Virus record (IMG/VR): IMGVR_UViG_2548876941_000010
DNA length: 4,547 nt
Source of the DNA: a virus
Lineage: Duplodnaviria; Heunggongvirae; Uroviricota; Caudoviricetes
Strand: one strand, 5' to 3'
The notes below the pieces were generated by a model. The model saw nothing but the letters and a program-made list of their open reading frames with translations. It searched no databases and was not told where the DNA came from. A program made the translations under genes and the position numbers. Position 1 is the stretch's first letter. Each line of letters opens with the position of its first letter. This document shows, one piece after another, positions 1,122 through 3,570 of the stretch.

Positions 1122-1160
1122 ACAATTAAAAACTGTTTTATGTCAACAGTTTTTAATTGT
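1122..1160. promoter_or_regulatory. 39-bp perfect palindrome; putative operator (OL-like) with embedded leftward promoter
   Basis: ACAATTAAAAACTGT (1122..1136), 9-bp spacer, ACAGTTTTTAATTGT (1146..1160); the arms are exact reverse complements. On the minus strand the spacer contains TTGACA (1146..1141), followed about 18 nt later by TAGATT (1122..1117), a plausible sigma-70 promoter reading leftward. Confidence 0.5.
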
Positions 1161-1170
1161 TGGTTTAGGC

Positions 1171-1196
1171 AAAAAAACTCCCTCGAATGAGGGAGT
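1171..1196 (-). terminator. intrinsic (rho-independent) terminator for the repressor transcript
   Basis: GC-rich 7-bp stem CTCCCTC (1178..1184) / GAGGGAG (1189..1195) with a 4-nt loop. On the minus strand the hairpin is followed directly by a run of seven T (plus-strand A7 at 1171..1177). It sits about 170 bp downstream of the repressor stop. Confidence 0.6.
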
Positions 1197-1366
1197 ATGA
1201 AAATTGTTCTGCTTAGATAGAGAAGGGAAATTGTCGTCGGGCATGCACAATATTTGCAATTTCAATGCTTGAAGTTGTAACTGTCTTCTTGTTCGGTTGT
1301 TTCGAATTCTGAAACTATCGGAGAAAGGGCTGTACTCATGGCATAACTCCTCTTCTTGTTCAGTGG

Positions 1367-1768
1367 TCACGCCAGGCGGCTTTTTTGTGCCGCTAACCAT
1401 CGGGCAATGGTTTCTTCCATTGATTTTTTCTTGTCTTTGATTTCTTGAAGCATTTTTTCCTGGTCTTCCTCAGGAAACGCACTAAAAGCTTGGAGCAGTT
1501 CGCGTTGGCGAGGACCAATTTTCATCGTATCAGGGGTGAAAATTTGCTCCCTCTCTTCAGGAGGCAATAAAAACCAATGCAATGGATGCCCTGTAACCTC
1601 AACCAGTTTATCCAAACTTGAGGCTTTAGGTGTTGCCTTACCGCTGACCCATTGTTGAACAGTTTGCTGTGTCACACCAATTCTACGGGCAAGCTCAGCC
1701 TGGCTCCATCCAGTTTCCTGAAGAAGCTTGCTGATTCTGTACATAGATACTTCTAGGGCGTTCATCAT
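1367..1768 (-). CDS. XRE-family helix-turn-helix repressor (cI/RacR-like prophage repressor), no peptidase S24 domain
   Basis: 133-aa ORF with an N-terminal HTH signature (SQAELARRIGVTQQTVQQWVSGKATP). It is transcribed divergently from a Cro-like gene. The C-terminal ~60 aa is short and shows no Ser/Lys autoprotease motif. The start may be the second ATG (1765), which has a GGAA 4 nt upstream. Confidence 0.8.
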   Translation of the reverse strand: MMNALEVSMYRISKLLQETGWSQAELARRIGVTQQTVQQWVSGKATPKASSLDKLVEVTGHPLHWFLLPPEEREQIFTPDTMKIGPRQRELLQAFSAFPEEDQEKMLQEIKDKKKSMEETIARWLAAQKSRLA

Positions 1769-1804
1769 TTTCCAATTTTACAGGCAAATACTGTTAAAAG
1801 CATC

Positions 1805-1843
1805 ACAATAAAAAACTGTTGATCGCATACAGTTTTTTATTGT
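1805..1843. promoter_or_regulatory. 39-bp perfect palindrome; putative operator (OR-like) in the divergent repressor/cro promoter region
   Basis: ACAATAAAAAACTGT (1805..1819), 9-bp spacer, ACAGTTTTTTATTGT (1829..1843). The arms differ from the 1122..1160 palindrome at one position. The spacer carries TTGATC (1819..1824) on the plus strand, a -35-like hexamer facing the cro-like gene. A TACAAT -10-like hexamer on the minus strand (1844..1839) overlaps the right arm and could serve the repressor gene. Confidence 0.5.
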
Positions 1844-1877: not shown

Positions 1878-2150
1878 ATGCTAGATAGCACTCGCGAAAA
1901 AATTAGGCAGAAACACACTCAAGCTGAAATAGGTCGTTATATGGGAGTTGCTCAACAGACTGTTTGGCAATGGTTTAGCTTTGGTGTTCCCCCAAAGCAG
2001 GTAATTCCGTTATGCCAGCTAATGAAGTGGGAAGTTACCCCGCATGAAATTCGCCCTGATATTTATCCTAACCCAACCGACGGTTTACCTGTTGGATGTA
2101 AAGTTAACACACCAAATACACCGGGGATGATTCATGAAAATCAAGCATGA
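1878..2150 (+). CDS. Cro-like HTH transcriptional regulator (YdaS/Cro family-like)
   Basis: 90-aa ORF with a strong SD (GAGGAGGG at 1866..1873) 4 nt before the ATG. HTH-like segment AEIGRYMGVAQQTVWQWFS followed by an RPDIYP motif, which I recall as typical of YdaS-type Cro proteins. Position is divergent from the repressor. Confidence 0.7.
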   Translation: MLDSTREKIRQKHTQAEIGRYMGVAQQTVWQWFSFGVPPKQVIPLCQLMKWEVTPHEIRPDIYPNPTDGLPVGCKVNTPNTPGMIHENQA

Positions 2151-2559
2151 ACACATCCGCATGGCGATGAATGCCTGGGCGCGTCCGGACGGTGAAAAAG
2201 TTCCGGCAGCTGAAATAACCCGGGCTTATTTTGAGCTGGGTATGACATTCCCGGAACTGTATGACGACAGCCATCCGGAAGCCCTGGCTCGCAATACTCA
2301 GAAAATTTTCCGCTGGGTGGAGAAAGACACCCCTGATGCGGTTAAAAAAATTCAGGCTTTGTTACCAGCGATCGAAAAGGCAATGCCACCTCCGCTGGTG
2401 GCCTGGATGCGCAGCCACAGTTCCGATTATTTTCGGGAACTGGTGGATACGCATGAACGACTGGTGAGAGACGCTGATGAACTTGTCGCGGTGGTAATTG
2501 CTGGTTTCAATCAGATGAATCGTGGTGGTCCGGCGGGAAATGCCGTGGTGGCGCATTGA
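2134..2559 (+). CDS. ydaT: YdaT-family protein (reported functional analogue of CII)
   Basis: 141-aa ORF beginning MKIKHEHI and ending VVAH, resembling my recollection of E. coli Rac-prophage YdaT. It sits immediately after the Cro-like gene with a 17-nt overlap, as in Rac-type racR-ydaS-ydaT modules. Identification is from memory of the family, not a search. Confidence 0.7.
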   Translation: MKIKHEHIRMAMNAWARPDGEKVPAAEITRAYFELGMTFPELYDDSHPEALARNTQKIFRWVEKDTPDAVKKIQALLPAIEKAMPPPLVAWMRSHSSDYFRELVDTHERLVRDADELVAVVIAGFNQMNRGGPAGNAVVAH

Positions 2560-2580: not shown

Positions 2581-3570
2581 ATGAAGCTCCTTTTTGCTGA
2601 ACGCCCGCTGGTTATAAACACGCAGCTGGCGATGAAAATTGGTCTGAACGAAGCCATCGTGTTGCAGCAGCTGCATTACTGGTTGAGAGATACCGGTTCC
2701 GGCATGGAATGTGATGGTGTTCGCTGGATTTATAACACAACAGAACAATGGCTGGAACAGTTCCCTTTCTGGTCAGAGTCAACGTTAAAACGCGCATTTG
2801 CAAGTCTGAAAACGCTGGGGCTTTTGCGTTGTGAAAAGCTCAACAAATCAAAGCGTGATATGACTAATTTTTACACGATTAATTACGAGAGCGAGCTTTT
2901 AGATGGTGGCAAAGTGAGCGAATCCATCATGTCAAAATGCGCCGCTCCATCAGGTCAAAATGACACGATGGAAGGAGCCAAAATGACACGCTCCATTGGT
3001 TCAAAACGACCCAATGTCATCGGGTCAAAATGGCCCGATGATCTTACAGAGAATACAACAGAGATTACTACAGAGAATACAACAGAGATTACTACAGAGA
3101 ATAAAAACACTTCTCGTCCGGAAGCTTCGCAACCGGACAGGCAGACGGCTGAACAGGATTTTTTAACCCGACACCCTGACGCTGTTGTGTTCAGTGCGAA
3201 AAAACGCCAGTGGGGCAGCCAGGAAGATTTGGCGTGTGCGCAGTGGATCTGGGGGCGAATCGTGAGTCTTTACGAGCAGGCTGCCAGCGATGATGGCGAA
3301 ATCATGCGACCGAAAGAACCAAACTGGACTGCATGGGCCAATGATGTGCGCACAATGCGGATGCTGGATGGCAGAACTCACAGACAAATTTGCGAAATGT
3401 TTGGTCGGGTACAGCGGGATCCATTCTGGGTAAAAAACGTCATGAGCCCGTCAAAGCTTCGCGAAAAATGGGATGAGCTGGTTATTCGTCTGGGGCGTTC
3501 GCCTGTACAGCGTTGCGTGAATCACATTTCTGAACCGGATAACGAAATTCCGCCGGGCTTCAGGGGGTAA
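2581..3570 (+). CDS. phage replication initiation protein (O-like / replisome organiser) with origin repeats embedded in the linker
   Basis: 329-aa ORF with SD GGGAGGGG directly upstream of the ATG. The N-terminal ~90 aa has the winged-helix pattern seen in phage replication initiators (LAMKIGLNEAIVLQQLHYWL ... STLKRAFASLKTLGLL). The central region is encoded by iterons and tandem repeats. The C-terminal ~150 aa is a separate domain I cannot assign. Confidence 0.8.
   Translation: MKLLFAERPLVINTQLAMKIGLNEAIVLQQLHYWLRDTGSGMECDGVRWIYNTTEQWLEQFPFWSESTLKRAFASLKTLGLLRCEKLNKSKRDMTNFYTINYESELLDGGKVSESIMSKCAAPSGQNDTMEGAKMTRSIGSKRPNVIGSKWPDDLTENTTEITTENTTEITTENKNTSRPEASQPDRQTAEQDFLTRHPDAVVFSAKKRQWGSQEDLACAQWIWGRIVSLYEQAASDDGEIMRPKEPNWTAWANDVRTMRMLDGRTHRQICEMFGRVQRDPFWVKNVMSPSKLREKWDELVIRLGRSPVQRCVNHISEPDNEIPPGFRG
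2925..3040. repeat. iteron array (five ~23-bp repeats), putative replication origin
   Basis: Core GTCAAAATG(A/G)C-like motif recurs with its CAAAA starting at 2933, 2956, 2979, 3002 and 3026 (spacing 23, 23, 23, 24 bp). Four units carry their own flanking inverted arms: CCATC/GATGG, GGAGC/GCTCC, CATTGG/CCAATG and CATCGGG/CCCGATG. The first unit is degenerate. Confidence 0.55.
3046..3103. repeat. perfect 24-bp tandem duplication plus partial third copy (A-rich, built from 12-bp subrepeats)
   Basis: ACAGAGAATACAACAGAGATTACT at 3046..3069 is repeated exactly at 3070..3093, then ACAGAGAATA at 3094..3103. It encodes TENTTEITTENTTEITTEN in the replication protein and directly follows the iterons, the usual position of an AT-rich unwinding region. 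Confidence 0.85.

Follow-up and report, generated by a model that had tools for sequence, protein, structure and literature searches.

Two 39-bp palindromes flank the gene for a 133-aa repressor in the viral record IMGVR_UViG_2548876941_000010, a stretch of 4,547 nucleotides (referred to below as the window) that is a lambdoid prophage immunity region of Escherichia coli. These palindromes are very probably the left and right operator-promoter regions of the prophage switch, with their 15-bp arms acting as sites for repressor dimers. They would make up an ordinary switch, in which the left operators (OL) accompany the leftward promoter PL and the right operators (OR) accompany both the rightward promoter PR and the repressor maintenance promoter PRM, with binding by the repressor presumed. 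An OL/PL and OR/PR pair around the repressor gene had been proposed in the initial annotation, and it is supported by gene context, by homology to prophage CP-933P and by the conservation of sites and promoters across genera. By its sequence, the window is a previously uncharacterised immunity specificity in a widespread family of E. coli and enterobacterial prophages. A literature search for the arm sequences returned no relevant paper in the library searched, and no description of operators for the repressor immunity type of this window was found.

The left palindrome (1122-1160) reads ACAATTAAAAACTGT-tttatgtca-ACAGTTTTTAATTGT and the right palindrome (1805-1843) reads ACAATAAAAAACTGT-tgatcgcat-ACAGTTTTTTATTGT, each with perfect 15-bp arms and a 9-bp spacer. 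Left and right arms differ by a single T/A difference at arm position 6, mirrored in both arms, and the spacers are unrelated to each other apart from the hexamer feature that they share. This hexamer is TTGATC at 1819-1824 on the plus strand and TTGACA from 1146 to 1141 on the minus strand. The first base of each is the last of an arm; both are directed outward, and 18 nt past them lie TAGGCT and TAGATT, each within TTGTAG(G/A). The palindromes and their one-base difference, the dissimilar spacers, and the outward -35-like hexamers followed by TTGTAG(G/A) had all been reported in the initial annotation, and the sequence bears out each of them. A search with the consensus ACAATWAAAAACTGT, allowing up to three mismatches, finds the four arms and nothing else in the window, while none of 200 dinucleotide shuffles gave four matches (shuffle mean 0.55).

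Every arm is almost two-fold symmetric by itself, reading ACAAT-N5-ACTGT in the window. As each arm is a complete pseudo-dyad, each palindrome is most likely a pair of adjacent operators, O1 and O2, with 24 bp between their centres, and not one operator with giant half-sites. The earlier description of the arms as unusually long half-sites is thereby replaced by one in which each is a complete pseudo-dyad operator of the form ACART-N5-AYTGT. The putative operators, which carry no strand, can be placed as follows. OL1 (1122-1136, the pseudo-dyad ACAATTAAAAACTGT) forms the left palindrome's left arm, between the -35 and -10 elements of PL, and OL2 (1146-1160) is the right arm, its centre 24 bp from that of OL1. 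On the other side, OR1 (1829-1843) is the right arm of the right palindrome and lies between the -35 and -10 elements of PR, and OR2 (1805-1819) is the left arm, abutting a weak -35 region of PRM. A further 15-bp operator, OR3 (1780-1794, ACAGGCAAATACTGT), was absent from the earlier list of sites. It is weaker, matching the arms at 11 of 15 positions, overlaps PRM and lies 25 bp centre to centre from OR2. The operator motif is repeated on both flanks of the repressor operon, where its four exact or near-exact copies in the window overlap the outward -35 and -10 elements, and OR is tripartite with its third site over PRM.

Homologous loci were fetched by means of the repressor protein, giving eight loci with repressor identities of 49-81%: Salmonella, Serratia, Raoultella, Klebsiella michiganensis, Pluralibacter, Morganella, a metagenome contig and Arsenophonus. 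A scan of contigs with the repressor protein alone yielded one locus, that of Arsenophonus; the other relatives were gathered separately. Seven of the loci (repressor 61-81% identical) have 15-bp sites at -75, -51 and -26 from the repressor ATG, and in Arsenophonus (49%) we read the sites at about -76, -52 and -27 once its start codon is moved upstream by 27 nt. In 7/8 loci a pair of sites spaced 23-24 bp follows downstream of the repressor operon, and a single downstream site was found in K. michiganensis. Of 38 sites compared, 35-37 have the bases of ACA at positions 1-3 and 32-37 those of TGT at positions 13-15, position 4 (R) mirrors position 12 (Y), position 5 (T) mirrors position 11 (A), and the centre is A/T-rich and variable. 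The alignment of OR from the eight loci is essentially gapless. Among its invariant columns are the start codon, PRM -10 positions and most positions of the ACA and TGT triplets of the three sites, together with the TTG of the PR -35 and the T, A and final T of the PR -10. Promoter hexamers hold a fixed register to the sites in all eight loci, and OR3, which in the window is the site at -26 from the ATG, recurs in each as a stand-alone 15-bp unit at constant spacing over TA(A/G/T)AAT.

When IMG/VR was scanned with a degenerate pattern of the architecture, 50 loci matched, and in about 40 of them a repressor 91-100% identical to that of the window is encoded next to the site. Among 41 copies of OR from these contigs (with 91-100% repressor identity in each case where the gene lay within the locus), the arms are invariant, even at the five central bases, on which the pattern set no constraint. 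The OR spacer occurs in 12 variants, 11 of them with a TGAT core, which is present in 40/41 copies. The 32 copies of OL show one arm variant and three spacer variants, all with TGAC. The oriented A-tract, the mirror symmetry and the symmetric T/A change that sets OL apart from OR are invariant in the 41 OR copies and in 31/32 OL copies. About 8/50 loci that fit the pattern have no repressor and non-mirrored arms, and we set them aside as unrelated. A separate repeat system was also caught by the degenerate pattern: several copies of ACAGTCTTCTACTGT-N9-ACAGTCTTCTACTGT occur in large metagenomic viral contigs (L030, 5149-5679; L040, 281-457; L060, 8880-8918), where the pair is direct and not inverted and no repressor homologue is nearby. 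A megablast search with the OL region against E. coli genomes gave three hits, a number probably limited by the low-complexity filter and word size.

Three promoters are predicted at these operators. On the minus strand, PL consists of the -35 TTGACA (1141-1146), inside the 9-bp spacer of the left palindrome, and the -10 TAGATT (1117-1122). Together they give TTGACA-18-TAGATT, a match of 10/12, with a predicted leftward start near 1110. TTGAC is invariant in the OL spacers of the 32 IMG/VR contigs and of seven genera, and in these genera a TAGATT-like -10 follows O1, its position kept as TAGATT, TAAATT, TAGCAT or TAATCT. On the plus strand, PR has its -35 TTGATC (1819-1824) in the spacer of the right palindrome, with TTG invariant and TTGAY in 7/8 loci, and its -10 TAGGCT (1843-1848, TANNNT) begins on the last T of OR1, with the T, A and final T invariant in eight loci. 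Its start is predicted near 1855, ahead of the ribosome-binding site GAGGAGGG and the cro ATG at 1878. The PRM -10 TAAAAT (1775-1780, minus strand) is overlapped by OR3 and lies 6 nt before the repressor ATG. All close homologues conserve TA(A/G/T)AAT followed by 6 nt and ATG, with no Shine-Dalgarno sequence, and the repressor mRNA is therefore predicted to be leaderless, starting at 1768. The paaR2 mRNA of CP-933P is likewise leaderless (PMC8630535). A further leftward promoter candidate, CTGAAA-16-TACAAT at 1866-1839, was discarded, as by our reading of the alignments the final T of its -10 is not conserved in relatives.

The repressor (1367-1768, minus strand) is made up of a 434-like Cro/C1 helix-turn-helix (HTH) domain at about residues 4-67 and, after a linker of low confidence, a PaaR2-like C-terminal domain of two helices. 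Pfam assigns HTH_3 (E 2e-13) and gives no Peptidase_S24 hit in the 133 aa. The AlphaFold2 model (predicted local distance difference test score 82) shows a five-helix Cro/C1 domain, the low-confidence linker and two C-terminal helices only. Foldseek returns generic Xre/Cro-C1 HTH proteins, including 434 (1pra, TM 0.76), SinR and P22 c2, and no match to the C-terminal part. By sequence, the repressor of phage 434 is the best match in the PDB, its helix TQQSIEQL corresponding to TQQTVQQW here. The five-helix Cro/C1 fold is present, with Gln-Gln opening the recognition helix and Gln at the 434 Q33 position. The residues conserved with 434 are, as we take them in standard 434 numbering, Q17, Q28, Q29 and Q33. 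The outer bases of 434 operators are ACAA/TTGT, and Q28, Q29 and Q33 are assigned to those bases. Across 20 homologues of the repressor Q34 and Q35 are invariant, and Q39, the equivalent of Q33, is K or R in divergent ones.

The 90-aa Cro-like protein of the YdaS family (1878-2150, plus strand) has the recognition helix AQQTVWQW, nearly the same as that of the repressor, and the two HTH domains are 38% identical over 56 aa (E 5e-8). At the other end of the repressor, the C-terminal 98 aa are 41% identical to PaaR2, which is octameric in solution (PMC8630535), and this PaaR2-like domain probably drives cooperative or higher-order assembly. Separately, divergent repressors (60-65% identical) carry K or R at the Q33 equivalent (QQSVQKW, QQTVQRW). 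ACAC...GTGT ends replace ACAR...YTGT at L010 (2376-2500), L015 (1291-1415) and L016 (1267-1391), a replacement that holds for most of the K/R repressors and hints at covariation between recognition helix and operator.

Regulation at this locus could then proceed as follows. Each 15-bp arm (ACART-N5-AYTGT) would be bound by a dimer of the 133-aa repressor. The O1/O2 pair brackets the -35 of the outward promoter and touches its -10; repressor on O1 and O2 would occlude both PL, which would read leftward into the DUF1391/ydfA-like operon, and PR, which would read rightward into cro/ydaS, ydaT and the replication genes. At OR2, adjoining the weak -35 of the leaderless PRM, the repressor could activate its own promoter, and at high concentration the weaker OR3 over the PRM -10 would be filled and PRM shut off. 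The Cro-like protein, with a recognition helix almost the same as that of the repressor, would be expected to compete for the same sites, and the PaaR2-like C-terminal domain may support looping between OL and OR. What was observed directly is the sites with their geometry and conservation, and the similarities between the proteins; from these we infer binding, its order, cooperativity, activation and looping.

Several points weigh against this account. For the immunity type of the window, the entire case is argued from sequence. No third OL site was found; a candidate OL3 near 1167-1185 is unsupported, as 1167-1181 matches the arm consensus at only 9/15 positions in a comparison by hand and the stretch overlaps a terminator. 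The window site is 15 bp long against 14 bp in 434, which makes the 434 contact model an analogy only. The -10 of PR (TAGGCT) is poor, and its spacer is 18 nt long. A better -10-like sequence, TATAGT at 1854-1859, lies 11 nt past the conserved PR -10 and is confined to the E. coli version. This sequence may provide a second or alternative start for PR, and because of it the true PR start is uncertain. CP-933P YdaS is monomeric according to the title of reference 24 in PMC8630535, which bears on how the Cro-like protein would bind. Finally, O1 and O2 mirror each other exactly in E. coli, with an oriented A-tract and a symmetric T/A difference, and a simple model of two independent dimers does not require this symmetry.

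This symmetry speaks for an alternative in which each 39-bp palindrome would be one indivisible operator, its arms being half-sites for a closed PaaR2-like tetramer or octamer. In the E. coli lineage each arm mirrors its partner perfectly, down to the asymmetric A-tract, OL and OR differ in a symmetric way, O1 and O2 have mirrored A-rich orientations in most relatives, and PaaR2, with its shared C-terminal domain, is an octamer. However, such an operator does not sit well with OR3, which stands by itself as a 15-bp unit and keeps its spacing in all eight aligned loci, nor with the internal dyad of each arm, whose positions 1-5 mirror positions 11-15. Moreover, the arms in Serratia, Raoultella and Pluralibacter differ at 3-5 positions when compared as inverted copies, and their ACA and GT ends are kept. 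We consider an indivisible operator improbable. Somewhat less doubtful, but still unlikely, is that the exact O1/O2 mirror symmetry is functional in itself, with a closed PaaR2-like tetramer or octamer reading the 39-bp unit as one element and bridging OL and OR. If true, bridging over 683 bp, or 1035 bp with the toxin-antitoxin genes, would be an architecture unlike lambda's graded O1>O2>O3 affinities.

Two other explanations do without the repressor, and both fare worse than the indivisible operator. The palindromes might work through DNA or RNA structure, as cruciforms, hairpin terminators or insulators bordering the immunity cassette. The window copies do fold strongly when single-stranded (-13 kcal/mol, z -6.7 and -8.4), and the left copy is followed on the minus strand by AGATTATTTT and is flagged as terminator-like, just downstream of the terminator of the repressor operon (1177-1196, minus strand), which consists of ACTCCCTC-attc-GAGGGAGT and then T7. 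Yet the counterparts in Serratia, Raoultella and Pluralibacter lose the hairpin potential (z -1.2 to -2.2) and keep the sites in their positions, the right copy would lie upstream of both the PR and the PRM transcripts given the predicted starts, and there is no Rfam match. The stems are also A/T-rich with 7-9-nt loops, a combination unfavourable for extrusion. A role through structure is very improbable. Neither the cruciform, which had been suggested in the initial annotation, nor a terminator can be upheld as the selected feature, since relatives retain the sites and lose the hairpin; the left palindrome might at most act as a minor back-up terminator on the minus strand.

The other of these explanations has the palindromes bound by the CII-like protein YdaT or by a host factor and not by the repressor or Cro. 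YdaT (2134-2559, plus strand) matches PDB 3C4R (E 1e-82) and 8BT1 (E 2e-74). Its tetramer can hold two operators, and the TTGATC of the right spacer resembles a half-site of its operator, TTGATT-N6-AATCAA (PMC9986795). In the window, however, that operator occurs elsewhere and not in the arms: ATGATTCATGAAAATCAA at 2127-2144 (no strand), at the ydaS/ydaT junction as in CP-933P, is a predicted YdaT operator. Because this sequence has one mismatch to the published operator, the junction probably holds a PRE-like element. CP-933P YdaT is without effect on PR, PRM and PL, and the arm motif tracks the DNA-binding heads of repressor and Cro, in that CP-933P has a matching YdaT (E 2e-74) together with other heads and GTTTAGT-type repeats. 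YdaT binding to the arms is thus rejected, and there is next to no chance that it or a host factor, in place of repressor and Cro, is what the palindromes serve. The initial annotation had left the binder open between the repressor, the Cro-like and the YdaT-like protein; the first two stand as candidates by virtue of their shared 434-like recognition helix, and YdaT, with its known site at 2127-2144, does not.

The OL/OR operator pairs favoured here have their closest characterised counterpart in the paaR2-paaA2-parE2/ydaS-ydaT module of CP-933P from E. coli O157:H7, studied by electrophoretic mobility shift assays, footprinting, 5' RACE and reporters (Jurenas et al. 2021, PMC8630535). There, PaaR2 (CI-like) and YdaS (Cro-like) footprint the intergenic region, bind OR1-3 and OL1-3 and repress PR933P, the leaderless PRM933P and PL933P beyond the toxin-antitoxin genes, and YdaT (CII-like) activates a PRE (PMC8630535). 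The window shares with it the gene order, the leaderless PRM geometry, operators flanking the repressor operon, a homologous PaaR2-type C-terminal domain and a near-identical YdaT with its site, and relatives of the window carry the same paaA/parE pair. In contrast, the toxin-antitoxin pair is deleted from the window with remnants left, the N-terminal DNA-binding domains of the two repressors do not align, and the Cro-like protein and YdaS are unrelated and give no alignment. The CP-933P operators are 18-bp GTTTAGTAA inverted repeats (GTTTAGT-type) as against ACART-N5-AYTGT in the window, and the intergenic sequences are unrelated. Identity with the CP-933P operators is therefore rejected: with its different DNA-binding heads and operators, the window is a heteroimmune relative of the paaR2/ydaS/ydaT module, and its operators lie outside those described in PMC8630535.

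Phage 434 has ACAA-N6-TTGT operators, three each in OR and OL. The 434 repressor is the best PDB match for the HTH domain, its base-contacting glutamines are conserved, and repressor and Cro share a recognition helix in the window as well. The outer ACA...TGT of the operators is kept, with a centre that is A/T-rich and variable; similarly, 434 operators span 14 bp, conserve their outer bases and have their affinity tuned by a centre that is not contacted (PMC1636474). The window site differs in being 15 bp long, its centre extended by one base pair, OL was found to have only two sites, and a short helical PaaR2-like module takes the place of the RecA-cleavable S24 domain. By its length of 15 and not 14 bp and its repressor without a cleavable C-terminal domain, the element is not a member of the strict 434 operator family.

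The window and phage lambda both have three OR sites, a centre-to-centre spacing of 24 bp between O1 and O2 (as between lambda OR1 and OR2), a -35 between O1 and O2, an O3 that overlaps a leaderless PRM and a second copy of the operator pair across the repressor operon. Neither the proteins nor the operator sequence is related, and O1 and O2 of the window are perfect mirror copies. DicA/DicC of Qin and the Gifsy-type systems also use short (about 130-aa) HTH repressors without a peptidase domain and control a leftward operon of the ydfA-ydfB-ydfC-dicB type. DicA-annotated and Gifsy-1/2 repressors are detectable homologues, but distant ones at 28-31% identity.

The arrangement is textbook-like and reveals no new principle. 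Its value lies in the testable predictions that the ACART-N5-AYTGT operators give, namely three promoters, a leaderless repressor mRNA and a specificity shared by repressor and Cro. The work on PaaR2, YdaS and YdaT of CP-933P is thereby extended to a second specificity on the same oligomerisation domain, and the repressors of the window and of CP-933P form a natural domain-swap pair for the study of how prophage immunity diversifies.

The gene content around the palindromes is that of a lambdoid prophage. The order runs DUF1391 (leftward from PL), the terminator, the repressor (leftward from PRM), and then, rightward from PR, genes for the YdaS-like protein, YdaT, an O-like protein with iterons and DUF977. 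Repressor and cro are divergent, with an intergenic region of 109 bp, and cro is followed by the CII-like and replication genes. The DUF1391 (ydfA-like) gene lies to the left and is on the minus strand. In most relatives a paaA/parE pair is present between the repressor and the left palindrome, and of this pair the window keeps a remnant at 1213-1339 on the minus strand, made up of the 3' end of parE and the 5' end of the antitoxin. The deletion removed 348 bp of the pair as present in IHE3034 and most relatives, which leaves OL and OR 683 bp apart, against about 1035 bp where the pair is intact. With a prophage of E. coli CAU16175 the window shares 98.7% identity, most of a 1.2-kb query from the region recurs in 508/5426 complete E. 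coli genomes, and homologues of the repressor occur in at least seven other genera.

A few features outside the switch were also seen. A run of nine Gs at 1097-1105 (C9 on the strand transcribed from PL) lies a few bases past the predicted PL start, and the PL leader around it, CACCAACCC...CACAGAACGCCGGGCAA, is partly conserved across genera; it could be a slippage-prone or regulatory leader. The sequenced phages Evi, vB_EcoS-666R9 and others share only about 1000-1111 of the window, at 93-97% identity. This match ends at the predicted PL start, which marks a mosaic junction at the edge of the immunity-specific segment. Farther right, the O-like gene contains iteron-like arrays at 2910-3104, with five repeats of about 23 bp (2910-3040) followed by four overlapping repeats spaced 12 bp apart (3045-3104, TACAGAGAATAC/AACAGAGATTAC), and these arrays are probably the prophage origin.

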